From the NCBI GenBank assembly GCA_038222225.1, contig JBBRHV010000003.1:10331-74330 (forward strand): DNA of 64,000 nucleotides. Direction: 5' to 3'. The notes under the pieces are model-generated. The model saw only the letters and a list, made by a program, of their open reading frames with translations, was not told where the DNA came from and made no database searches. This stretch comes from Candidatus Omnitrophota bacterium. GTDB lineage: Bacteria; Omnitrophota; Gorgyraeia; Zapsychrales; JANLHA01. This document shows positions 13,562 through 26,353 of this stretch, one piece after another; position 1 is the stretch's first letter; each line of letters starts with the position of its first letter. The translations under genes were made by a program, and so were the position numbers.

Positions 13562-14026
13562 CTATTCAGCATTCAAAAAAGCAATACGGGCCTTGTGCAT
13601 CCCGGGTAAAACGTCGGTAAAATGCTCCAGCATATCCTCCGAAGATTTCAACTTAACAATCTCCATTTCGCTCTGGTAACGCGCCACATCACATCCGGTT
13701 TCATTTTTAATGATCTTTTCAATGCCGGCCATGCTGCTGGTCTTGGGATCAAATTTGATCATCCTCATGTCTTTTTGATTCAAAGAACTGAACGCCCCTC
13801 CGGGAAGATAAATCGTGCCATTATTAAAATCAACGGCATAGGCAATGATGCCCGGAATAAGAAAGAACAGCAACCCGATCCCGTCCAAGACGGCAATACC
13901 GGCATCGATCTTACCGCCTCTTTGCCCTTTCCGTTCAGGGTACATAATGGTCCCGCAACCCGCTAGTTGAAAAACGAGTACAGTACATATCAACGTATAG
14001 AAGACTTTGGTTATCTTGTTTAACAT
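13562..14026 (-). CDS. Lipoprotein (LAGC lipobox) with an internal hydrophobic segment.
   Basis: MLNKITKVFYTLICTVLVFQLAGCG signal/lipobox. Confidence 0.6.
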   Translation of the reverse strand: MLNKITKVFYTLICTVLVFQLAGCGTIMYPERKGQRGGKIDAGIAVLDGIGLLFFLIPGIIAYAVDFNNGTIYLPGGAFSSLNQKDMRMIKFDPKTSSMAGIEKIIKNETGCDVARYQSEMEIVKLKSSEDMLEHFTDVLPGMHKARIAFLNAE

Positions 14027-14041
14027 ATGCTCCCTTTTTTT

Positions 14042-14458
14042 TTAGATCGTTTTTTTTATGGACCCATCAGCCGACAAAACATCTGCGCTGAGCTCAAACG
14101 CATGCCGCATCATCAATTCAAACGCTTTTTTGCTGAGATGTTCAAAAACAATTCCAAGCACTTCATGGGTCGGCTCTGACTTGGCCCAGGCCACACGGCC
14201 CCGAGTCTTAAAATTTTCTTTATTTGAAAGATAAATTTTCAGTTGAACCTGATGTTGCACGCGCGGATGCCCGAGCACAATGATCGAGGCACCATCCAAA
14301 CTTAAATCCTTCGTAAAAGACTGAACAAGAGGCCCCCTGTCCTTCCCATAACATTCAACGCGTTTATTTACTTCCCAACGGGGAAAATATCTTTTATCGT
14401 ACTTTTTTTCCCTCTGCCCTATGTTCCTTTGCTTGACGTCCAATATACCGTGAGCCAT
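14042..14458 (-). CDS. PilZ-domain c-di-GMP binding protein.
   Basis: KRYFPRWEV (RxxxR-like) and DLSLDGASI (DxSxxG) motifs; GGAGGG RBS before the second ATG. Confidence 0.7.
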   Translation of the reverse strand: MAHGILDVKQRNIGQREKKYDKRYFPRWEVNKRVECYGKDRGPLVQSFTKDLSLDGASIIVLGHPRVQHQVQLKIYLSNKENFKTRGRVAWAKSEPTHEVLGIVFEHLSKKAFELMMRHAFELSADVLSADGSIKKTI

Positions 14459-14564
14459 AGGACCCTCCTTCACCGTTTTCCCATACCGCTAAATGGAACT
14501 CGAAATCCCCGCCAAAATAGTATCTCCAGAGTACCTGTTTATTTGGCGAAGATTCCATTCCCAA

Positions 14565-15137
14565 TTATTTCTTTCCGCTTCTTGAAAAAGGCTCTTTAAC
14601 AACAACCTTGACACCATCGATTGTTCCTGTTGCCGCGTCTTTGACCTTATCCCCCACCGACGCGCTGATGTCATACGCAGCCTTAACAGCTCCGGACGCG
14701 GCTTCAGCAGCTGCTTTTTCCACATCAATACCCGTCTCTTTGGCCGAATGGATAACTCCTTTGATCAATCCTTTGGTTGCGACACCGACATCTCCCCCTA
14801 TATCAAAGGTTGCTTTGATGACCCGGCCGCCTAAGGCCCTGATCACAGTGAGCGCTTCTGCTCCTGCTGCCTTGGATCCCTTTAATATCCCTACAACAAG
14901 TCCCTTGACCCCATCCTCCAGATTTTTTCCGGTTTCCACAATACCGCTGATCGTTGCACTGATCACATCCTGAGCTGATTCGATCAACGCCGCTCCGGTT
15001 TTGCCTGTCTCTTTGGCCAAGTTGCTCACAACTTTGCTGATCGTATCAATGATCGCATTGACAAGATCCCCTGTTCCTGTAATGATACCGACGATATCGT
15101 CCTTCACTGTTTCGACAATCTCTTTTGTTGTGCTCAT
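14565..15137 (-). CDS. Gly/Ala/Val/Ile/Lys-rich repeat protein, predicted all-helical amphipathic (LEA/apolipoprotein/phasin-like); function unknown.
   Basis: 190 aa of about 11-residue periodic repeats (GIVETGKNLEDGVKGLVVGILKG...); RBS GGGAGGTG. Confidence 0.55.
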   Translation of the reverse strand: MSTTKEIVETVKDDIVGIITGTGDLVNAIIDTISKVVSNLAKETGKTGAALIESAQDVISATISGIVETGKNLEDGVKGLVVGILKGSKAAGAEALTVIRALGGRVIKATFDIGGDVGVATKGLIKGVIHSAKETGIDVEKAAAEAASGAVKAAYDISASVGDKVKDAATGTIDGVKVVVKEPFSRSGKK

Positions 15138-15239
15138 TCCACACCTCCCTGCCTGCTGCCGCGTAGACTCCGCAGACTATTTTTTCTTCTTTTATTGAAT
15201 GCTCCATCTGTCAACCGCTGCTGACCGCAGCGACACACA

Positions 15240-16040
15240 TTAGTTCTTGGATAACGTATCATCCAACGTCATGTTATTAACCACACTAGTTACTCCATTA
15301 ACATCATTGGCGACTTTACCAGCCATATCTTTTCCGGCTGCATTACTAGCCTTGCCGCTTAAGGTGACCACGCCATTATTCGTCGTAACCCCGGTCTTAA
15401 AAAAGCTGGTCGAGTGGTGCGTTAAGAGCGCCATTTTAACCTGGGCGGTGATCGATGCATCATCGATCTTGTCAGCCATGGTTGGCTCCTGCATCACCGG
15501 TTTTTTGGCATAGATCGACCTTGAAACTTTGGCGACCGTCATCTCATTCTGGACGTCTTTCACGCCATTGATATCCTTAGCGTATTCCCCGGCCAGATCC
15601 TTTTGCGCCTGATTCGCGGCCTCCCCCTGCAATGTGACGACCCCCTCCTTAACGAAAACCTGAGTATTGATGCCGCTCACATTTCGATTATAAAGAAGCG
15701 AATACTTCACCTGCATGCTGATCCATCCATCAGAGCTTTCAGCCGGAGGAGTATTTTTCAGCTTCAGTTGGTTGTCGACACTTTTGACTCCCGGAAGGCT
15801 TGCCACGGTCTCCTGAGCTAATCCTTTATGCGACCCTTCTTCAACGGTTCCCGTCAACGTGACCACACCGTCCTTGGCCTGAAGGTTGACACTGTCATCT
15901 TTAAGATACGTTTTAAAAACATACGAATTTTTTGCTGACGCTTCAATGCGGTTATCCATCTCAGAGGCGCGCGCAGAAACGCTTGAGAGCAACACAACAG
16001 CTGTGACCGCAATGACGACTTTGGAATAATTGACATTCAT
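15240..16040 (-). CDS. osmY: Periplasmic BON-domain protein (OsmY-like, three BON repeats).
   Basis: Signal peptide; repeated GVVTLTGTV / GVVTLQGEA / GVVTLSGKA BON cores. Confidence 0.8.
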   Translation of the reverse strand: MNVNYSKVVIAVTAVVLLSSVSARASEMDNRIEASAKNSYVFKTYLKDDSVNLQAKDGVVTLTGTVEEGSHKGLAQETVASLPGVKSVDNQLKLKNTPPAESSDGWISMQVKYSLLYNRNVSGINTQVFVKEGVVTLQGEAANQAQKDLAGEYAKDINGVKDVQNEMTVAKVSRSIYAKKPVMQEPTMADKIDDASITAQVKMALLTHHSTSFFKTGVTTNNGVVTLSGKASNAAGKDMAGKVANDVNGVTSVVNNMTLDDTLSKN

Positions 16041-16241
16041 AAAACACCTTCCTTTATAGTAAACTGCTTATGTTTGAATGGACTCTCTTTCTAAAACCGG
16101 CCCAAACCCTGATTCACGCATATGATTCACGCGGTTTTCTTTTTCCCGAGGACAAATATGAGAACCGATAAAATAATAAACACAAAAAATGTCGCTGCCC
16201 AATGCAACATAAGGGCCTCCTTTCTTAAACGATCCCCATGA

Positions 16242-16478
16242 CTACTTCAACAAAGATCCCCGCTGGATCTGATCCTTACGGATGTTATACTCCTGCTGAG
16301 TGATCTTTTTATTCTTCAGGTCTTCATTTAACTGGTTCATTTGTCGCTCTGCCTGAATTTCATATCCGGCTCCCGCGCCTAAAGCCCCGGCCCCGGCGCC
16401 TCCCCAAAAAGATCCGCTGCATCCTGCCAGCACGATCCCTGAAAGCACGATCAATAACCCTATTGATTTTTTCATCAC
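16242..16478 (-). CDS. Small lipoprotein with a glycine zipper (GAGAGALGAGAG).
   Basis: Lipobox LAGCS, Gly-zipper, short helical tail. Confidence 0.6.
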   Translation of the reverse strand: MMKKSIGLLIVLSGIVLAGCSGSFWGGAGAGALGAGAGYEIQAERQMNQLNEDLKNKKITQQEYNIRKDQIQRGSLLK

Positions 16479-16521
16479 GATCCTCCTGCCTCTTTGATGA
16501 GCATTCCCTGCTCATGTGTCT

Positions 16522-16647
16522 TTATATCCGTTGAATACCTGCCCCTGTATTCTCGATATCTTTTCCAGCGCCTTTCACCATATTGCAACCCGAAACTGAA
16601 ACCGCTAAAAATAAGACAATAAGAATCACTACACTTTTATTTTTCAT
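16522..16647 (-). CDS. ecnAB: Entericidin A/B-like small lipoprotein (41 aa).
   Basis: Translated by hand: MKNKSVVILIVLFLAVSVSGCNMVKGAGKDIENTGAGIQRI; matches the entericidin pattern L-x-GCNT-x-GAGKD-x-x-x-G. Confidence 0.6.
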   Translation of the reverse strand: MKNKSVVILIVLFLAVSVSGCNMVKGAGKDIENTGAGIQRI

Positions 16648-16660
16648 GTCCTCCCCCTTT

Positions 16661-17029
16661 CTAAAACGCCAGATTAATCAAATCAACTAGTGTCTGGTCA
16701 TTAAACGGTTTTTGTAAAAATCCTACGGCCCCTGCACTTAAGGCTTGCTCTCTAAGGTGCCCGTTCTTGTCCGCCGTAATGATGATGACCGGGCGCGTGG
16801 AACCGGATTTAATGATCCGTTTTATCGCTTCCCATCCATCCAGTCCCGGCATGTGAAGATCAAGGATCAAACAACCCTCCGTACTATTCGGCACTGCACT
16901 AAAAAATTTCTCTGCCGAAGGAAATGTCTCTACCTTAAATCCAAACGTAACCAGAAGAAATTTAAGAGCACGGCAAATCGATTCATCGTCGTCAACTATA
17001 TAAATATTCTTTTTGAGTATAATCTTCAT
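16661..17029 (-). CDS. Single-domain response regulator (CheY-like receiver).
   Basis: IYIVDDDESICRALKFLL...LILDLHMPGLDGWEAI...KP. Confidence 0.8.
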   Translation of the reverse strand: MKIILKKNIYIVDDDESICRALKFLLVTFGFKVETFPSAEKFFSAVPNSTEGCLILDLHMPGLDGWEAIKRIIKSGSTRPVIIITADKNGHLREQALSAGAVGFLQKPFNDQTLVDLINLAF

Positions 17030-17065
17030 AACGTTATCCTCTTTTTAACTCCATACTAACCACAA

Positions 17066-17674
17066 TCAAGAAAGAAACAATTGTACCTGGGTATCATCCG
17101 CCACCTTCGGCGCCAACACATGGCACATATATAACCGCGCCCGATGAAGCAGGACATAAAGATTTTCAACACTGATATTTAAGATCTCGCATATCTCTGC
17201 AACGTCCATCTGTTCTATTTCCCGAAGGTAAAAAGCCTCTGCGACCGCCTCCGGTAATTCCTGCAGACAATCAAAGAAGGCCGGCCAGAATTTCTTTGTT
17301 TGAGCTTCTTTGCCCGGATCAAGCTCATGGATGCCCAACAAATTCCTGTGTCGGCCTTGTTGATCAAAAAAACTGTTGCTAGCTGCCTCATTTTCCCGAA
17401 CATCTTTGAATGGTTTTTTCTGAAAGACCTTGCGGAAATGATCCCGGATCTTAGCCTCCAGCATATCCGTCAGCCAAACCCCTTCATCTGACAATCCTCC
17501 GAAACGGCGCTTTGTATCTGCCGCAGATAAAAGTGTCTCTTGCACAAGGGTTTCTGCCTGTGCGGAATATTTCACCCGCCTTAAGGCAAGCGTGTAAAGT
17601 TGTTGGCCATACTGATCCACCCACAGATCAGTATCAATAGTCCCCGAACTCTTTTCCTTCAGCACGTGTACCAT
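17066..17674 (-). CDS. ECF-type sigma-70 family sigma factor (alternative upstream start at 17743).
   Basis: Region 2 (LYTLALRRVKYSAQAETLVQETLL) and region 4 (LPEAVAEAFYLREIEQMDVAEICEILNISVENLYVLLHRAR). Confidence 0.75.
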   Translation of the reverse strand: MVHVLKEKSSGTIDTDLWVDQYGQQLYTLALRRVKYSAQAETLVQETLLSAADTKRRFGGLSDEGVWLTDMLEAKIRDHFRKVFQKKPFKDVRENEAASNSFFDQQGRHRNLLGIHELDPGKEAQTKKFWPAFFDCLQELPEAVAEAFYLREIEQMDVAEICEILNISVENLYVLLHRARLYMCHVLAPKVADDTQVQLFLS

Positions 17675-17857
17675 GGCAACCCTCTCATCTTTTTTACCCC
17701 TGAAAAAAGAAACACGCCTTCTGCTCACAGGCTTTAGCTTCACACCTGTTGAGCATTGTAGGCTTTATCAAAAAAAGGACAATTGTACCAGGGTATAACT
17801 GATGAATGAACAGATGCGGACGAAAAAACTCTTTATCACGATGGAAAAAATTTTTAA

Positions 17858-20650
17858 TTATACGAATGATCTTTCGCGCTCTAAAACTCTCAGAAATGCA
17901 TCAACGATCTTAGGTTCAAATCGCGTACCGGAAAATTCCTGAAGCATTCTGAGGGCACTCTCTTTTGGGAACGCCTTGCGGTACGGCCGATCTGAAATCA
18001 ACGCCTCGTATACATCAGCAACGGCAATAATCCTTGCGGCCAAAGGGATTCTTTCTTTCACAAATCCATAAGGATATCCTTTGCCATCCCATCTTTCGTG
18101 ATGATAAAGAAGGGCCGGTATGATCGGATGCAACGAATGAATCGGCCTGATAATATCCACGCCTATCTGAGGATGCCGTTTAACCTCTTCAAACTCTTCT
18201 CTGGTCAGTTCGGACGGTTTATGCAGGATCTCTTCTCTGATCCCGACTTTCCCCAGATCATGCAGCATCATCGCCTGTCCAATAAGCTCAATCTGCTGGG
18301 AAGACAAATTTAACTCACGAGAAATTGCGACGGCATAATCAACGGCCCTTTCACCATGCCCCCCGGTGTCATGATCTTTCAGCTCTATAATTTTTGCGAA
18401 TGCGAATATTTCCTCGATCAAACTTTGATTTGCCCGTAACGTCAGTCGAGCGATTTTATCTTTGAGCGACTTGATGTCGGAAGTTTCCGGAATTGTTGCG
18501 TCCCCCTTCTTTATGTCTGAGAGAGAAAATACCCGGTTGCCGCCGCTCTCTTTGGCCTTATTCAAAATTTTGTCAACAAAATCCACCATCTCCATCCCTT
18601 GAAGAGGACTGTCTTCCGGATATGATGAAACCGCTAATGTTAACTTCAACTTAATAAGATGCGCCTTATCCCCAAAGTTATGTGCCTTGGCCCTTTTCAG
18701 AATTCTTTCAGCCAAGGCGAGGATGCCCGCCTTATCCGTGTCCGGAGATAACACAATAAACTCATCCCCTCCGTAACGGATGACAGTATCATAGGGCCGG
18801 ACGATCTTGGTCAACTCTTGAGCGAACTGCCTTAATATCAAATCGCCGAAGACATGCCCATACACATCATTGATCGACTTAAAATAATCCAGATCCATCA
18901 TAATGAGCGAAAACGGACTAAATGTCCGTTCAGCCTGAGAAAGGCCTCCTTCCAGCGTTTCTTTCAGATAACGATGATTATAAAGACCGGTATGGGAATC
19001 TTTCAAAATCAGCTGTCCCATTTCCTTGCTGAGTTGTTCCCGTTCGGTTTCTGCCATTTTGCGGTCGGTAATATTGCGAATGTTGCATTGGATGACGTTG
19101 ATATGGTCAACGCTATAGACATTGCTGACAAATTCCACATTGATCAAGCGCCCGTCTTTGGTCTGAAGGGGCAAATCTTCATAACGGACATATCCTTGAG
19201 TTTGCAGTTGCTGAAATGCTGTTTTACATCTATTGGTATCTATAAAAGCGCCGACATCCCAGAGTTTCTTTCCTAAAAATTCTTCGCGTGAATAACCCAA
19301 CATATCAACTAAAAATGGATTCACTTCATTGATCTGACTCGTTTCTGCATCAAGAATTAATATCCCATCCTGGGCCGTCTCAAAAAGCCGACGGAACCGG
19401 CTTTCCGAATTCTGCAGGGCATCCTGTAGACGCTTATGTTCGGTGATGTCGCGCCAAACACTTAAAAACATCCACCTCTCTTTGTAACGGGTCAAAGACG
19501 TCGACACCAGGATGTTTTTCTTCGAACCATCCTTTGCGCGAATAACGGTCTCAGTTTCACGGCATCCGTTTTCTGCAACAATTTCGTTTAAAAAGCGCAG
19601 CGCTTCCTGGCTATCTTTAAAATTCGGATGAATAAGGGTATCAAAATCTGAATGATTTGCTTCCTCTATTGTATAACCGCAAATATTTCCCATCCTTGAA
19701 TTAAAAACCTCAAAATGGCCTTTCGTATCCGACAAGGTGATCCCATCGCTCACCTTATCAACAACCATTTGCAGCTCTAAAAAATCATCCAAAAACCCTT
19801 TCTCCACCACTTTGCGTGTGGTTATATCACGAACGACTCCCCACATGCCCCGCGGCTTTCCTTCTTTATCCTTAATAAGCCAAATTTTAAGGCTTACGGG
19901 AAAAACCGTCCCGTCCTTTTTGATATATTCTTTTTCATATTCATCAGCATACCCCTTTTCCAGGATTTGTTTTTCAAAAATATCTTCTTCGAGGCTATGC
20001 CATTTCTCAGGAGTGAACTGCCGGCAAATAAATCCTTTGATTTCCTGCTCAGTATAACCGAGCATTTCTCTGTAAGCCTGATTGGTGTCAATAATATTTC
20101 TCTTCATATCCATCAAGAACATGCCGTCCTTAAACGAATCGTAAAAACTGTGATATTTCTCCTCTGATTCTTTCCATTGAGCCACATCACTCAATTTTTC
20201 TAAAAATTCTTTGATCGATTGGGCCCGGTTAAGAATTTTTTGTGTGGTCTCTAATGAAACTGGCGCGGGACTTAGAGTGTCAAGGGAATCTTCCAGCATC
20301 AGTTCCGCAGCGTAGATATCATTGCCGAATTGATGCGTGATGATTTCTTTAAGGATGGGATTGATGGGGATGGCATTCTGGAATTGAGGAAAATTCGGGC
20401 TCTCTTTCGAAGGTGAGGTCACCGCGCCAATAACATTTTTTATGTCTTTGTACCACAATAAAATCCGATGCGCTTCCTGAATCGGCATCATTTCTTTTTT
20501 TTCAAGCCACCGCTGGCACAGAAGGATGATCGCGGCCACGCTATCCTCAACGCGATGGTAAATAAAATCCCAGACATCCTTTCCAATGCTGATGCCTTCA
20601 TGGTTTATATATTCGTAAAGCTCTTTTTCTCGGGGCATGGGATTGGACAT
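17858..20650 (-). CDS. Cytoplasmic PAS-PAS-PAS-GGDEF-HD-GYP protein (c-di-GMP synthesis and hydrolysis domains).
   Basis: RYGGDEFIVLSPD GGDEF site; HDLGKVGI ... HHERWDGKGYPYG HD-GYP signature. Confidence 0.9.
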   Translation of the reverse strand: MSNPMPREKELYEYINHEGISIGKDVWDFIYHRVEDSVAAIILLCQRWLEKKEMMPIQEAHRILLWYKDIKNVIGAVTSPSKESPNFPQFQNAIPINPILKEIITHQFGNDIYAAELMLEDSLDTLSPAPVSLETTQKILNRAQSIKEFLEKLSDVAQWKESEEKYHSFYDSFKDGMFLMDMKRNIIDTNQAYREMLGYTEQEIKGFICRQFTPEKWHSLEEDIFEKQILEKGYADEYEKEYIKKDGTVFPVSLKIWLIKDKEGKPRGMWGVVRDITTRKVVEKGFLDDFLELQMVVDKVSDGITLSDTKGHFEVFNSRMGNICGYTIEEANHSDFDTLIHPNFKDSQEALRFLNEIVAENGCRETETVIRAKDGSKKNILVSTSLTRYKERWMFLSVWRDITEHKRLQDALQNSESRFRRLFETAQDGILILDAETSQINEVNPFLVDMLGYSREEFLGKKLWDVGAFIDTNRCKTAFQQLQTQGYVRYEDLPLQTKDGRLINVEFVSNVYSVDHINVIQCNIRNITDRKMAETEREQLSKEMGQLILKDSHTGLYNHRYLKETLEGGLSQAERTFSPFSLIMMDLDYFKSINDVYGHVFGDLILRQFAQELTKIVRPYDTVIRYGGDEFIVLSPDTDKAGILALAERILKRAKAHNFGDKAHLIKLKLTLAVSSYPEDSPLQGMEMVDFVDKILNKAKESGGNRVFSLSDIKKGDATIPETSDIKSLKDKIARLTLRANQSLIEEIFAFAKIIELKDHDTGGHGERAVDYAVAISRELNLSSQQIELIGQAMMLHDLGKVGIREEILHKPSELTREEFEEVKRHPQIGVDIIRPIHSLHPIIPALLYHHERWDGKGYPYGFVKERIPLAARIIAVADVYEALISDRPYRKAFPKESALRMLQEFSGTRFEPKIVDAFLRVLERERSFV

Positions 20651-20951
20651 AGCTCTTATTGCACCTCATGAAAAGGCAACCGTATGCCGACACATTGCCA
20701 GACAGTTCGGCTCCCTTTATTTGTTTTTATTGTAGGCCTTATCGTAAACAGGGGCAATTGCACCAGGGTATAACTCAAACCCTGGAACGTTCGGAAGAAA
20801 AAAAACCGCTGTTTTAGAAAAGGGTGTCCCTGCTTGAATGAGACAAGCCATGCCTTTTGGCGAAGATGTTTTGAATGGTATTCTTTGAAAAAAATTTCAC
20901 GTCATATGATCGCTCAAGTTTTCTCTCGCGCTTTTTCTGAATCTGCCGTAC

Positions 20952-21302
20952 TTATGCTTCTGCATCACCAACTTCTACCGTAAAGTTCATTCCTTCCCAG
21001 GTGTTCGTCTCCGACCAAAAAATCGCAAAGGACAACATTTGCTTGCCTGTTATTTTTGCTGTCGGAAGATCGACCTTATAGATGCCAATACCAGTGTCCT
21101 GTGCGTTGGCATCTTGAGCGGTTGTCCAGTTATCCAAACTCCAGTGAATAACTGCCGGTGCGAGCACCTCTATGCGCAGCGTGCTGCCTTTTGGCACCAC
21201 CCTGCACTTCTGATTGTAGCGCCATATGACGTAACGCGATTTCGTTTTATTTTTTTGATAACGCTCTACCCGGTTGAGGCGGGGTATCAAAGACGCGGCC
21301 AT
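20952..21302 (-). CDS. Hypothetical; possibly a remnant of a glycoside hydrolase C-terminal beta-sandwich domain.
   Basis: RIEVLAPAVIHWSLDNW...GIYKVDLP pattern; sits beside a truncated sugar porter. Confidence 0.25.
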   Translation of the reverse strand: MAASLIPRLNRVERYQKNKTKSRYVIWRYNQKCRVVPKGSTLRIEVLAPAVIHWSLDNWTTAQDANAQDTGIGIYKVDLPTAKITGKQMLSFAIFWSETNTWEGMNFTVEVGDAEA

Positions 21303-21317
21303 CCATAAGCGAACGCC

Positions 21318-21788
21318 TTAATTTAATATATTCGGCGTGCGCCCAAACCAAGGGCATCGCTGATCCCAACGGCCTGCCGTAAAACAGCCCTCTCTAGAGA
21401 TATATAACGGAGTCGCAAAAGAGGCGACGCCAATGGCGATCCCTACGATCATTCTACCTTCGATTAACCAGGCAACACTCGATGCCAAAGCAGTCCCAAT
21501 CCCGCCAAACGTAAATATGAGAGCCGCCAGTATTATGATCTTACGCCGTCCAAAACGGTCAGACCAGACGCCGCCGAATATCACTCCTATAATCGCTCCC
21601 AGCAAAACCGCGCTGACGACAAACTCTTGAGCGATCGTTGAAAGCAAAAAATCTTGTTTGACAAAAAGTATGGCGCCGGAAATAACGCCCGTATCATAAC
21701 CAAAAAGCAATCCCCCCAGCGCGGATATTGCCGCAGCGATTTTAACAAATCCCGTATTCTCAACCGCTAAGTCAGAAACATTGTTCAT
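21318..21788 (-). pseudogene. N-terminal about 150-aa fragment of an MFS sugar-porter transporter (truncated).
   Basis: GYDTGVISGA and SDRFGRRK sugar-porter motifs; the ORF ends after about 4 TM whereas family members are about 450-480 aa. Confidence 0.7.
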
Positions 21789-21862
21789 TTAGCCCCCCTT
21801 CTTCCCACTGAATTCGTTCTATCCTTCTCGTTCCACATGAATAAATGAACAAGGATTTACTG

Positions 21863-22033
21863 TCATTTTAAAAATGACACACTGAACAAAGCGCCTAAAA
21901 AACCCCCGTACAAGGCTCCCCGTATTGGTGTGCTAGTCAATGGGCAGACCCCGCTCCTGCATTTTCCATAATATCCCATAACCGCCCCCAAAGAAGCGCC
22001 TGCAATAATAAAACCCAGACTTTTTATGATCAC
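21863..22033 (-). CDS. Small membrane protein with a CxxGxCP motif (56 aa, GTG start).
   Basis: Hand translation VIIKSLGFIIAGASLGAVMGYYGKCRSGVCPLTSTPIRGALYGGFLGALFSVSFLK; GGAGG RBS 5 nt upstream. Confidence 0.45.
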   Translation of the reverse strand: MIIKSLGFIIAGASLGAVMGYYGKCRSGVCPLTSTPIRGALYGGFLGALFSVSFLK

Positions 22034-22054
22034 TTCGGCCTCCGCATAAAATTC

Positions 22055-22288
22055 CTATTTTCTGACAGCCGTTTCAGACTTTATGATTCTTTCCGCTTCC
22101 AGCCAATTATCCATATCCCTTCCGGGGATATGGCCGCTTTTTTCAAAAAGTTCTTGTGCGGTCTTACTCACGCGCTGCTGGAACTCATTCAGATCCATTG
22201 CGACCCGTTCAGACTTTCTGTTCATCACTTTTTCATTTTCCGTTACGTCCATTTTGCTTTTTTCTAATTTAAAATTTTTTTTCACCAT
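22055..22288 (-). CDS. DUF2934-like small protein.
   Basis: DNWLEAERI motif typical of DUF2934. Confidence 0.5.
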   Translation of the reverse strand: MVKKNFKLEKSKMDVTENEKVMNRKSERVAMDLNEFQQRVSKTAQELFEKSGHIPGRDMDNWLEAERIIKSETAVRK

Positions 22289-22528
22289 TTCTTCGTCTCC
22301 TTCGTGTTTAACAGTTCTTTTTAATTTAAAAATGTCTTCAGCTCAATGCCCTTCATCATCTTCGTTTCTATAATATAAATTTGCCTATCAATTAGACGGA
22401 ATTGAACCTGACCCCTTACTGATCTTATTTTAAACCGCGTTTAAAAGAGTTCAATTATACCAAAGTATCATTGGTGAAGTGGACTGTTCGGGAGAAAAAA
22501 AGGAAAGCTGTTTTGGAAAAAACTATGC

Positions 22529-23152
22529 TTATTTGGAAGAAACGAGCCCAGCTTTTTGGGCAAAGTGGATGAGTTCGGTAACGGTTTTGGCTTGCATTTT
22601 TTGCATGACGCGGCTGCGGTGGACCTTGATCGTCTGAAGAGCCGTCCCCCGTTTTAAGGCGATCTGTTTACTCAACATTCCACTGGCCACTAAACGGAAA
22701 ACCTCAAGTTCTCTGGGCGAAAGAGTTTTGATGCAGCGCCATATTTTATCAATTTCGGATTGTTCTTTATTTATAATTTTATCTCTTACAATCGCACGAT
22801 CGATAGCTTCCAGCAAGTCTTTATCAGTGAACGGTTTGGGCAGGAAATCTATGGCCCCCCCCTTCATCGCTTTCACGCTTTTTGGGATGTCCCCGTGTCC
22901 TGAAATAAAAATGATCGGGATGGTTAACCCTCGCATCGTCATTTTTTCCTGCAGAGCAAGCCCGTTTACATGCGGAAGACGCAGGTCTAAAACCAGGCAG
23001 GATGCGGCTTTGGTATGCTTAAAAGCCAAGAAATCGGCTGCGCTTTTAAATGTCTCAACCTGAAAACCGTGTGAGTTTAATAATAAAGCTAAGGCCCGGC
23101 AGACAGAGATATCATCATCAACAACATAAATAATAGGCTTACGATTGGTCAT
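22529..23152 (-). CDS. FixJ/NarL-type response regulator (REC + LuxR HTH).
   Basis: PIIYVVDDDISVCRAL... and LSPRELEVFRLVASGMLSKQIALKRGTALQTIKVHRSRVMQKM. Confidence 0.9.
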   Translation of the reverse strand: MTNRKPIIYVVDDDISVCRALALLLNSHGFQVETFKSAADFLAFKHTKAASCLVLDLRLPHVNGLALQEKMTMRGLTIPIIFISGHGDIPKSVKAMKGGAIDFLPKPFTDKDLLEAIDRAIVRDKIINKEQSEIDKIWRCIKTLSPRELEVFRLVASGMLSKQIALKRGTALQTIKVHRSRVMQKMQAKTVTELIHFAQKAGLVSSK

Positions 23153-24525
23153 AAAGCATCCTTTGTCCCTGTGCTTTTCGCAGGTATCACAGGAACAGTG
23201 AAATAAAAAGTCGCGCCACGATCAGGATTATTCTTAGCTTCTAAACATCCGCCATGAGCTTCAACAATAGAACGGCTGATGGACAACCCCATACCCAAGC
23301 CATCAGGCTTGCTGGTAAAAAAATGTTTAAAGAGCTTTTTCATATTCTCTACCGGAATGCCGCATCCGGAATCCTCGATTTCCACTATAATCGTATCAGA
23401 ATTCTTACACGATGAACGTATCATTAGTTGACGAGATTCATCGCGCGCTTCCATCGCGTCCAAACTGTTACTGATCAGATTCAGAAGAACCTGTTGCAAT
23501 TGGATTCGATCGCCGCGTATAGGAGGAAGCTTCTTAGCTAATTCAGCTTTAATGACCTTATTCCTTACAGTAACGTCTGTCGTAATGAGAACAACCGTTT
23601 CATTAATGATCGCGTTCATATCAAGAGGCTCAAATTCAGGATCGCTTTTCTTAAGCAAAGACCTAAGCCGCCGGATGACCTCCGACGCCCGCTGGTCATC
23701 ATTAACGATGTATTGTAAGATTTCTTGGAGCTGAGGCTCCCGTCCTGCAAACATGCGTTGTGCAGCTTGGGCGTGCGAAAGAATGGCCGTTAAGGGCTGG
23801 CTGATTTCATGAGCGAGGGATGAAAAAAATTCGGCAAGTTTTCCCACTCTCGTGACATGCAAAAGATCTTCACGTTGTTCTTTGATTTCTAAATCCTTCT
23901 GTCGCATGGATGTAACATCCGTTTGAATCCCCGCATAATGGGTAACGATGCCGTTTGCATCACGAACAGGAGAAATGCGCAGGTAATTCCAGAAACTCTC
24001 TCCGTTTTTCCGAAAATTAAGCATCTCTCCATGAAAAGACTTGTCCTGATGTAAAGTGTTTTTTATTTCTTCAGCGATTCTCGGGTCAGCAGCAGCTCCG
24101 TAAAGCAAAAAGTAGTTTTGCCCTATGATGTCTTTCTTGGGCAAACCTGTCATCATATGGAATGATTGATTGGAGTAAATGATCGGAAAATCAATCTTTT
24201 GAGCATCGATAATAAAAATACCATCCGATACCGAGTCCATGACCTTGGTGCGAATGTAGACCTGCTCTTCTGATAGTTTTTCTTTGTCGATCCATGCTTT
24301 TATTTGTCCATTCTTAATTTTTAGCTCATCCGCTTGGTGGCTGACCATCGTGGTTAGCTCATTATGCGTTTTATCTTTATCAGAAATCCGCTTAGAACAA
24401 TGCCGGCGATCCTTATTGCCAGATTCTTTCCCCAAAATCGACTTTTGCGTCTTCGTGCTTTCTTTAATAATCGAATTTAGGGGTTTCTTTTTTTGACCAC
24501 TTTGAGTTAGCTTTTGTTTTTTCAT
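23149..24525 (-). CDS. Soluble PAS sensor histidine kinase (FixL-like).
   Basis: H-box SLAHEISQPLTAI; HATPase GMGLSISRSIVEAHGG; PAS region; 4-bp overlap with the RR gene. Confidence 0.9.
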   Translation of the reverse strand: MKKQKLTQSGQKKKPLNSIIKESTKTQKSILGKESGNKDRRHCSKRISDKDKTHNELTTMVSHQADELKIKNGQIKAWIDKEKLSEEQVYIRTKVMDSVSDGIFIIDAQKIDFPIIYSNQSFHMMTGLPKKDIIGQNYFLLYGAAADPRIAEEIKNTLHQDKSFHGEMLNFRKNGESFWNYLRISPVRDANGIVTHYAGIQTDVTSMRQKDLEIKEQREDLLHVTRVGKLAEFFSSLAHEISQPLTAILSHAQAAQRMFAGREPQLQEILQYIVNDDQRASEVIRRLRSLLKKSDPEFEPLDMNAIINETVVLITTDVTVRNKVIKAELAKKLPPIRGDRIQLQQVLLNLISNSLDAMEARDESRQLMIRSSCKNSDTIIVEIEDSGCGIPVENMKKLFKHFFTSKPDGLGMGLSISRSIVEAHGGCLEAKNNPDRGATFYFTVPVIPAKSTGTKDAL

Positions 24526-24839: not shown

Positions 24840-25086
24840 AATAATCCTTTTTAGTTTATTTTTTACATTTTACCATTTTTGTGGAAAAAGGGAAGAACCA
24901 AAAAAGACGTCAGCTTCCCAGCTCCTTGAGTGTGATGAAGGGTGCTAATCGTGAGGGATCTGGCCAGTCTGTGGGGGCACTTCTGCCGTATCTGTTTGGG
25001 GTGGCGAGGTTAAGGGGATTTATGGAGTTAATAAAGGTGTCAGCACCTTTATTTTGAAAAGTGTCTTCCTTCCCCTGCGGGGACCA

Positions 25087-25757: not shown

Positions 25758-25866
25758 TTAAGGCAACCTCTAATAATTCCATTTACAGTCAAAATGAATG
25801 GCTCTTTATCGACGATAGCGGAATCAGTAAATGACTCAAAAATAGCATTTTTAGAGGTTGCCTTAA
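25758..25866. repeat. 109-bp element bounded by a 16-bp inverted repeat (TTAAGGCAACCTCTAA ... TTAGAGGTTGCCTTAA), orientation A. Inverton or MITE-like.
   Basis: Same element at 26245..26353 with identical direct flanks (CACCTTTATTGA ... GTATTGTGTC) but the inner 77 bp reverse-complemented. Confidence 0.75.
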
Positions 25867-25883: not shown

Positions 25884-26153
25884 TTACAGGGATCCTCTTC
25901 TCTTTGGTTTCTTCTCTACACTTTTCTTAGGGGCCATTTTGCCCCGATTACGAATAATCAAACCGTCTAAAAATCGTCTTAACAGCTGATCGCCGCAAGG
26001 CCTATAATTTTCCTGATCGTCTTTACGAAAAATAGCGGAGAGCTCCGAAGGAGAAACTTCTAATTCAGCGAGTTTAAGGATTTCAATAATATCCGTGTCT
26101 CTTAAATGCAAAGCGATACGAAGCTTTTTCATAATGTCGTTATTGTTAATCAT
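25884..26153 (-). CDS. DUF1456 (YehS-like) protein.
   Basis: NDIMKKLRIALHLRDTDIIEILKLAELEVS...QLLRRFLDGLIIRNRG pattern. Confidence 0.7.
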   Translation of the reverse strand: MINNNDIMKKLRIALHLRDTDIIEILKLAELEVSPSELSAIFRKDDQENYRPCGDQLLRRFLDGLIIRNRGKMAPKKSVEKKPKRRGSL

Positions 26154-26244
26154 CCTTGATCCCTCCTGTGATCCTAACAATTAAGCCATTTCTATCCAAG
26201 CCAATAATAAAGGTGTCAATCACCTTTCTTGTCACCTTTATTGA

Positions 26245-26353
26245 TTAAGGCAACCTCTAAAAATGCTATTTTTGGGTCATTTACTGATTCCGTTATCGTC
26301 GATAAAGAGTCATTCATTTTGACTGTAAATGGAATTATTAGAGGTAGCCTTAA
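26245..26353. repeat. Second copy of the IR-bounded 109-bp element, orientation B (interior inverted relative to copy 1).
   Basis: See 25758..25866. Confidence 0.75.

Follow-up and report, generated by a model that had tools for sequence, protein, structure and literature searches.

A dyad-promoter box repeated beside a StyR/FixJ-type response regulator gene in Omnitrophota, and its candidate regulon

A stretch of 64,000 nucleotides from the genome of a Candidatus Omnitrophota bacterium (assembly GCA_038222225.1, contig JBBRHV010000003.1, positions 10,331 to 74,330; hereafter the window) carries four copies of a box of about 45 bp, in which a 16-bp dyad-symmetric sequence abuts a sigma-70-type promoter. 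The same box recurs in many Omnitrophota metagenome-assembled genomes (MAGs), and it is frequently found just past the gene of a response regulator composed of a receiver (REC) and a GerE domain, as it is in the window. The box is likely to be the operator and promoter through which this neighbouring regulator acts, probably as an activator. In its distribution and placement the box behaves as the promoter of a regulon and not as a mobile repeat.

Anatomy of the box and its recurrence among genomes

A search of the window for the core CAATTRYACCWRRGTAT, in which up to two mismatches were allowed, returned four sites at 17078, 17780, 20755 and 22452, all of them without a single mismatch. The chance expectation is 0.13, and no shuffled sequence gave four copies. 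The same four sites were grouped by a repeat search of the window as one 30-nt family, while no fifth copy was found in the 64 kb at up to three mismatches to the dyad-plus-TTG consensus. The copies, designated A to D by position, precede the minus-strand genes of a single-domain receiver (REC, 16661-17029), an extracytoplasmic function (ECF) sigma factor (17066-17674), a PAS-GGDEF-HD-GYP protein (17858-20650) and a DUF2934 protein (22055-22288). A preliminary description of this DNA had reported a shared core upstream of minus-strand gene starts, and both the core and its placement are borne out at all four sites. Within the open reading frame (ORF) of a BON-domain protein, 16 nt at 16018-16033 are 94% complementary to the dyad region of copy D; this segment was considered as an inverted partial fifth copy, fails the dyad search at three mismatches and was taken as a chance match.

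Read on the minus (gene) strand, each copy is laid out as a 16-bp dyad TTRTACC-NN-GGTAYAA, an abutting -35 element TTGnnn, a spacer of 16-17 nt and a -10 element TAnnAT. These parts make up the conserved unit of about 45 bp, which reaches 17053, 17755, 20729 and 22427; the extent of about 70 bp given previously was too long, and the unit continues downstream of the segment then outlined. The gap of variable length (5-10 nt) formerly placed inside the element gives way to a fixed one, as the core, 17 nt and CGGRMGAAAAAA line up without gaps in copies B, C and D. As for the two palindromes of the preliminary description, one is retained as the 16-bp dyad, whose 6-4-6 form TTRTAC-N4-GTAYAA is shared by the four window copies and by 12 sites checked by hand; the other, CAATTG, is the seam at which the last AA of the dyad meets the TTG of the -35 hexamer and is not a separate site.

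Promoters were called by a blind sigma-70 scan at three of the four copies (B, C and D), with the TTG of CAATTG as the -35. Promoters of the sigma-70 type have TTGnnn and TAnnnT 16-18 nt apart, upstream of a gene and co-oriented with it, and the copies conform to this layout with their spacers of 16-17 nt. Judged from the predicted hexamers, the dyad would span about -51 to -36, with its centre near -43. Copy A runs into the 3' end of the sigma ORF, where it covers the last codons and the stop; the sigma stop lies inside the promoter spacer. Rfam holds no family that matches; the window contains two tRNAs only, and nothing relevant was found at E <=1 in 16500-23000. A sigma-54 promoter was also considered and rejected, since in CTGGTACAATTG the TGG and TTG are just 5 bases apart (TGGTAC-AA-TTG), which is the wrong spacing in comparison to TGGCAC-N5-TTGC.

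On a broader scale, the strict pattern TTRTACCNNGGTACAATTGAT, which fixes 18 bases and one two-fold position, was scanned over one genome per species (596 Gb), where about nine chance matches were estimated. At least 134 sites in at least 120 stretches were recovered. The 120 listed stretches are titled Omnitrophota or Omnitrophica in 82 cases and 'uncultured Planctomycetales' MAGs in 32, several of which carry orthologs of the regulator; among the six with other titles, three look real (-10 hexamers, multiple boxes, regulator or receiver orthologs) and three look like chance. TAnnnT follows at exactly 16 or 17 nt in 112 of the 134 listed sites, against a per-position background of 2.1%. The dyad consensus is TTATACC-NN-GGTACAA, and the -35 is TTGATT in most genomes. 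The sites listed carry no information upstream of the dyad; past it, information resumes with the -35 T, a TTT within the spacer and cTAaAAT.

The placement of the sites is equally regular. A co-oriented ORF starts within 400 nt in 130 of the 134 listed sites, with a predicted leader of about 60 nt (median), and 22 of the 134 fall within an open frame of at least 120 codons, in comparison to 83% of random 21-mers from the same loci. The right arm together with the -35 (GTACAATTGA) occurs 186 times in about 1 Mb of fetched sequence, nearly always behind the left arm (T)TATACC and including sites outside the strict pattern. Such constant company implies that the two arms are one unit, as expected for the site of a dimer, which agrees with the dimeric transcription-factor site first proposed.

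The genes behind the box are varied and include stress-type and signalling genes as well as genes of small membrane proteins. Among the first ORFs past 121 listed sites, Pfam assigned Response_reg to 22, DUF5670 and DUF2934 to 4 each, Entericidin, Autotransporter and Radical SAM/B12-binding to 3 each, MlaE, Ferritin-like, DUF3309, DUF1328 and PLDc_N to 2 each, and Hsp70 and GGDEF to 1 each. Many further first ORFs are small and without a family, and genes for BON, Transgly_assoc and MscS proteins follow within the same clusters. This gene content bears a resemblance to that of general or envelope stress regulons, and the genes behind the box plausibly form one regulon, as was suggested at the outset.

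Some boxes depart from the common layout or add to it. A C directly precedes the -10 in most boxes of the loci L093-L212, at position -13 (cTAaAAT, often then AC); in Escherichia coli, a C at -13 favours sigma-S. At locus L171, the box at index 3643 (minus) has a second one back to back with it, about 50 nt upstream and of opposite orientation (ATCAATTGTACCGAAGTATAAT), an arrangement that points to divergent promoters under box control in some genomes. Three boxes within 8 kb, at 1245(+), 7685(-) and 942(-), are found on a 359-kb contig titled 'uncultured delta proteobacterium' (L129, 56% G+C), each with an extra upstream half-site-like repeat (CACCAAAGTACAAT) and a -10 of TACTAT or TAGTAT. 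No ortholog of the regulator or the receiver was found in this 8-kb block; either the bin is mislabelled or the regulon extends past Omnitrophota.

The closest view of what is conserved comes from an orthologous locus. The ECF sigma of the window is rare: among 5.8 billion proteins, 16 relatives reach E <1e-10 and there is one close relative only, the best non-identical match being 52% identical. This relative is encoded on a JGI contig (L002) with the gene order of the window, namely histidine kinase (HK), response regulator (RR), sigma and REC, and with identities of 78% for the regulator, 79% for the receiver and 67% for the kinase core. The intergenic DNA of L002 is otherwise unalignable and much richer in G+C, and the box precedes the sigma (TTATACCCGGGTACAATTGATT-16-TAAAAT) and REC (TTGTACCTCGGTACAATTGATT-16-TATGAT) alike. 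An A-rich tail seen upstream of two window copies, a CCGAAC box and a AAAACAGC box are all absent from L002, where the dyad, the -35 and the -10 alone are kept. At the loci of two further sigma relatives (P0003 and P0006, loci L003-L006), neither synteny nor box was found.

The neighbouring response regulator and competing explanations

The response regulator at 22529-23152 had been named among the candidate regulators in the preliminary description, and it emerges as the best one. Its orthologs form more than 120 database clusters at 72-86% identity, in which every source name given is Candidatus Omnitrophota or Omnitrophica; the named orthologs and the box both occur almost entirely in records titled Omnitrophota. 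An ortholog of the regulator is present in 36 of the 120 listed stretches (blocks of up to 8 kb) and an ortholog of the receiver in 47. Of the 36 stretches with the regulator, 24 have a same-strand box no more than 400 nt past the gene, mostly at a distance of 10-80 nt. Copy D occupies this position, as a box does in every lineage inspected by hand. In three further Omnitrophota lineages, one of them represented by a 3.36-Mb chromosome, the cluster order is PAS-HK, RR and REC, followed by genes for small proteins, BON, Transgly_assoc, MscS and similar; here the box stands in front of REC and of a GGDEF operon (L088) and occurs at further promoters, and no ECF sigma was found in the HK-RR-REC cluster.

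The closest solved structure to the regulator is that of StyR (1YIO, E 2e-50), with FixJ next. The recognition helix TIKVHRSRVMQKM resembles the TVKVHRHNIMQKL of StyR, and its segment LQTIKVHR shows an invariance of at least 98% across 120 orthologs, which makes it the most conserved stretch of the protein and parallels the near-invariance of the box. The operator ATAAAC-N4-GTTTAT has been assigned to StyR, TodT and TmoT (PMC5874301), and the activating high-affinity STY2 site of StyR is located some 40 bp ahead of the transcription start (PMC2442086). The box, as TT(A/G)TAC-N4-GTACAA, has the same 6-4-6 geometry and the same xTxxAC half-site skeleton as the StyR/TodT operator (PMC5874301).

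The proposed mechanism is that a phosphorylated dimer of the regulator, partnered by the kinase at 23149-24525, would bind the dyad and help the housekeeping RNA polymerase holoenzyme to start transcription, as StyR does at STY2. Four transcription units would be switched on: the DUF2934 gene with the genes that follow it, the PAS-GGDEF-HD-GYP enzyme of cyclic di-GMP (c-di-GMP), the ECF sigma and the single-domain receiver. With an ECF sigma under the box, the result would be a two-tier cascade. The receiver may in turn act as a competing phospho-acceptor and exert negative feedback on the kinase, which is a plausible role. Its sequence is 40% identical to the receiver domain of the regulator itself and keeps the conserved acidic pocket, Thr and Lys.

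Several points weigh against the assignment of the box to this regulator as an activator. Linkage is partial: in 84 of the 120 listed stretches the 8-kb block is without an RR gene, as would be expected of a regulon but also of another global factor. His179 of StyR, which is said to contact DNA, is replaced by Ser and is variable among the orthologs. The invariance of the fixed positions of the strict pattern is partly a matter of construction, the promoter and transcription start site (TSS) positions are predictions from consensus, and a site abutting the -35 could equally serve repression. Moreover, the proposed function gives no explanation of the tail common to copies C and D.

Some of these observations would also suit a genuine operator-promoter whose dyad is bound by another dimeric Omnitrophota regulator, the RR being a member of the regulon or an unrelated neighbour. 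The modest number of box stretches with an RR gene and the loss of the DNA-contacting His179 are in line with this, as is the lack of a box ahead of the HK-RR operon, both in the window and in L087, in searches that allowed up to 3-4 mismatches. Such a regulator nevertheless seems unlikely in view of the recurrent position of the box directly past the RR gene, in the listed stretches and in the lineages inspected by hand, of an operator geometry that is also that of the closest characterised relatives (PMC5874301), of a recognition helix as invariant as the box, and of the near confinement of both partners to Omnitrophota-titled records.

The same box and the same regulator could also work by repression, with the dimer lodged against the -35 so as to block RNA polymerase until a signal releases it. 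The dyad does abut the -35, and with -10 hexamers near consensus (TATAAT, TAAAAT, TAGAAT) and an invariant TTG the promoters might fire unaided. On the other hand, StyR, the closest relative to have been characterised, is an activator at STY2 from about -40 (PMC2442086), the position predicted for this dyad, the -35 elements of the window are poor matches to TTGACA past the TTG, as is typical for activator-dependent promoters, and the dyad does not overlap the hexamers themselves. Repression is accordingly held to be quite improbable, and activation would be the sign of the regulation.

The ECF sigma at 17066-17674 had likewise been put forward as a regulator. ECF sigma factors commonly autoregulate, and the box might be the target promoter of this one, acting on its own gene from copy B, which precedes it; the sigma would then read either a CCGAAC -35 and an ATACCC -10 or the core itself, and CCGAAC-N17-ATACCC/ATACTT is indeed present in copies C and D. 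The chances of this are very small. CCGAAC is absent from copy B (which has CCGCAT), from copy A, from both L002 boxes and from 128 sites elsewhere. The conserved hexamers TTGATT and TAnAAT are sigma-70-like; an ECF-type promoter with an AAC-containing -35 and a CGT-like -10 was looked for and rejected, CCGAAC being confined to C and D. The box is found in many genomes and loci without the sigma, and none of the 120 listed stretches carries the sigma. Furthermore, a metagenome scan with a sigma alignment covered 80 soil metagenome loci of distant sigma relatives (34-41% identity) and found no box upstream of the sigma, two TACCNNGGTA matches being inside the gene or far from it; the wider sigma family is thus not accompanied by the box. 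On the best reading, the sigma gene is among those that the box drives, and its product is not the regulator.

Least credible of all is the end of a dispersed mobile repeat, such as a miniature inverted-repeat transposable element (MITE), or another non-regulatory repeat: copies are many per genome (at least 8 stretches in one MAG), the core is palindromic and some 40 nt more are common to C and D, but conservation is confined to about 45 bp without flanking homology, the upstream flanks of different boxes within one genome are unrelated, and the boxes, although dispersed, mostly avoid long open frames, share the orientation of the next gene, to which the distance is short and fairly constant, have a -10 hexamer at 16-17 nt and are without a match in Rfam, so that the regulatory reading comes through the repeat check proposed in the preliminary description.

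The gene neighbourhood and the A-rich tail

Between about 13.5 and 24.5 kb every gene lies on the minus strand (Table 1), and their identities were taken from Pfam and NCBIfam. The best NCBIfam match of the regulator is FixJ (E 1e-56) and those of the kinase are AtoS first and FixL second; all of these score below the equivalog cutoffs, and the pair is therefore not considered orthologous to FixL/FixJ. The PAS domain of the kinase is LOV/YtvA-like (E 2.7e-30), and the photoactive-cysteine motif NCRFLQ reads NYFLLY in it; a role in blue-light sensing is improbable. In L002, the orthologous kinase is without this PAS domain.

Table 1. Features of the window around the four copies of the box; promoter and start-site positions are predicted.
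Feature	Position	Strand	Basis or remark
PAS histidine kinase, cognate partner of the regulator	23149-24525	minus	Pfam/NCBIfam
REC-GerE response regulator, StyR/FixJ subfamily, proposed dyad binder	22529-23152	minus	Pfam Response_reg + GerE
Copy D tail	22480..22520	minus	Window-specific; fills most of the spacer from the RR stop codon (22529-22531) to the dyad
Copy D dyad TGATACT-TT-GGTATAA	22455..22470	minus	59 nt past the response-regulator stop codon, upstream of DUF2934
Copy D promoter: -35 TTGAAC, 16-nt spacer, -10 TAAAAT	22427..22454	minus	Blind promoter scan; predicted TSS ~22420, DUF2934 ATG 22288
DUF2934 protein, target of copy D	22055-22288	minus	Pfam; at 4 sites in other genomes the box is followed first by a DUF2934 gene
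DUF6132 protein	21863-22033	minus	
MFS transporter fragment	21318-21788	minus	
116-aa ORF, no family	20952-21302	minus	
Copy C tail TTTTCTAAAACAGCGG-T8-CTTCCGAACGTTCCA	20783..20821	minus	Window-specific, not conserved in other genomes
Copy C dyad TTATACC-CT-GGTGCAA	20758..20773	minus	Precedes the PAS-GGDEF-HD-GYP gene
Copy C promoter: -35 TTGCCC, 17-nt spacer, -10 TACAAT	20729..20757	minus	Blind promoter scan; predicted TSS ~20722, ATG 20650
PAS-GGDEF-HD-GYP protein, target of copy C	17858-20650	minus	
Copy B marginal tail counterpart TTTTTTCGTCCGCATCTGTTC	17808..17828	minus	Score 11-12
Copy B dyad TTATACC-CT-GGTACAA	17783..17798	minus	Precedes the ECF sigma gene
Copy B promoter: -35 TTGTCC, 16-nt spacer, -10 TACAAT	17755..17782	minus	Blind promoter scan
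Copy B predicted TSS; sigma ATG	~17748; 17674	minus	ATG behind GAGAGGG Shine-Dalgarno
ECF sigma, lineage-specific target of the box	17066-17674	minus	Related to TIGR02943 but below cutoff
Copy A dyad TGATACC-CA-GGTACAA	17081..17096	minus	Upstream of the single-domain REC gene, within the last sigma codons
Copy A promoter: -35 TTGTTT (17080-17075), 16-nt spacer, -10 TAGTAT (17058-17053)	17053..17080	minus	Layout like the other copies
Copy A predicted TSS; REC ATG	~17046; 17029	minus	ATG behind AGAGGA Shine-Dalgarno
Single-domain receiver (REC)	16661-17029	minus	Commonest first gene after the box
BON-domain protein	15240-16040	minus	

The arrangement of the window is particular to its lineage. 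In other lineages REC comes directly after the regulator, whereas here about 5.4 kb are inserted between them, with DUF2934, DUF6132, the MFS fragment, the 116-aa ORF, GGDEF-HD-GYP and sigma. Three inserted units have a box of their own, and copy D retains the ancestral position beside the regulator gene. Within the inserted block, the 156-aa ORF at 21318-21788 matches the N-terminal third only of sugar/MFS transporters and is probably a gene remnant.

Past REC, the co-oriented genes of 13562-16478 and of L087/L088 are conserved in order across lineages. They encode small ORFs, BON, a 190-192-aa protein and PilZ in the window, with Transgly_assoc and MscS elsewhere; these genes may be co-transcribed from the REC box or have weaker sites of their own. 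On the other side of the cluster, a 109-nt inverted repeat (25758-25866 and 26245-26353, 96% complementary) encloses a minus-strand ORF of 98 aa (25884-26180), and hairpin-like AATAAAGGTG..CACCTTTATT motifs occur near it at about 25040-25060, 25740 and 26215. This unit could be an invertible segment or a MITE-like insertion.

A conserved A-rich tail was part of the element as first described. It is clear in copies C and D only, where a local alignment of about 40 nt scores 24 against a null of 7.7 +/- 2.4 obtained from the upstream flanks of other sites; in copy B it is marginal (11-12 against the same null), and copy A shows nothing. Beyond the window, the DNA upstream of the dyad is without information content across 128 sites of other genomes, and no A-rich tail was present in L002 or in any other genome examined. 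The long window-specific pattern (core, N20, CGGNNGAAAA) gave zero matches in the scan of the genome collection (GTDB representatives), so the tail is common to none of these; the window itself was not matched either, and its genome is therefore absent from that collection. The tail is not part of the conserved box. It corresponds to the spacer that separates the regulator stop codon from the dyad in copy D, and the homology stops near that stop codon. On the simplest account, the whole intergenic cassette, the regulator-to-box spacer along with the promoter, was copied when new units joined the regulon. The tail might conceivably be a lineage-specific second site. As an UP element it was rejected, since the -40 to -60 region is taken by the dyad and the T-run falls at about -70 to -80 and is absent elsewhere. 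A reading of the T-rich tail as a terminator was also discarded: a minus-strand scan lists nothing in the three tails, and no G+C-rich stem is apparent by eye.

Relation to known systems and significance

The nearest parallel is found in the StyS/StyR and TodS/TodT systems of Pseudomonas, whose regulators are likewise REC-GerE proteins and share KVHR..MQK in the recognition helix. In both cases the operator is a 16-bp dyad of 6-4-6 geometry built on the half-site xTxxAC (PMC5874301), and the StyR site lies about 40 bp upstream and activates (PMC2442086). The half-site differs, being TT(A/G)TAC here and ATAAAC there, as does the residue at His179 of StyR, which is Ser or variable here. The kinase here is a simple PAS-HisKA-HATPase protein, whereas StyS and TodS are double-sensor kinases, and no architecture of the IHF type is evident. 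The targets differ as well, a multi-promoter regulon of small stress-type and signalling genes in place of a single catabolic operon.

Rhizobial FixL/FixJ also combines a PAS kinase with a REC-GerE regulator and leads into a transcriptional cascade through a second regulator. In FixL, however, the PAS domain binds haem, whereas that of the present kinase is LOV-like, and the second tier is FixK/NifA in rhizobia and an ECF sigma here, in this lineage only.

In the sigE-cseABC system of Streptomyces coelicolor, an ECF sigma is controlled transcriptionally by a two-component system and not by an anti-sigma factor. The present sigma gene is similarly placed behind a promoter with a putative response-regulator site, two-component genes are linked to it, and no recognisable anti-sigma partner adjoins it. 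In contrast, CseB is of the OmpR type and the regulator here of the NarL/FixJ type, the sigma belongs to a different family (related to TIGR02943), and it is one of many targets, absent from most of the genomes that bear the box.

The gene content invites comparison with general stress regulons, such as those of E. coli sigma-S, Bacillus sigma-B and alphaproteobacterial EcfG/PhyR, in which a single-domain receiver is also involved. The stress-type families behind or near the box are BON/OsmY-like, Transgly_assoc (YeaQ/GlsB), entericidin, DUF1328, DUF3309, DUF2934, ferritin-like, Hsp70, MscS and c-di-GMP enzymes. A stress role of the regulon is suggested by this gene content. The mode of control differs, as a DNA-binding response regulator would act here at sigma-70-type promoters, whereas the systems named depend on an alternative sigma.

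A search of the accessible literature for the motif string, for this box and for gene regulation in Omnitrophota returned nothing relevant. The regulon is new and its mechanism, a response-regulator operator, is conventional; its value therefore lies in biology and annotation and not in a new principle. As Omnitrophota are uncultivated, the box provides a sequence handle with which any MAG can be scanned for the regulon, and with a named candidate regulator, binding becomes testable in vitro without culturing the organism. Furthermore, the predicted promoters and start sites help to annotate small genes and to read metatranscriptomes, and the arrangement of the window offers a case of a lineage-specific ECF sigma and c-di-GMP enzymes wired beneath an older two-component system.

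A more far-reaching and tentative possibility, on present evidence a doubtful one, is that the kinase, the regulator, the receiver and the near-invariant 22-bp box make up a master regulon for stress or envelope stress throughout the phylum Omnitrophota. If so, it would correspond in function to sigma-S, sigma-B or EcfG and rely on a DNA-binding response regulator that acts at housekeeping promoters; the receiver, always co-regulated, would be a phosphate sink for feedback, and some lineages would have recruited an ECF sigma for a second tier.

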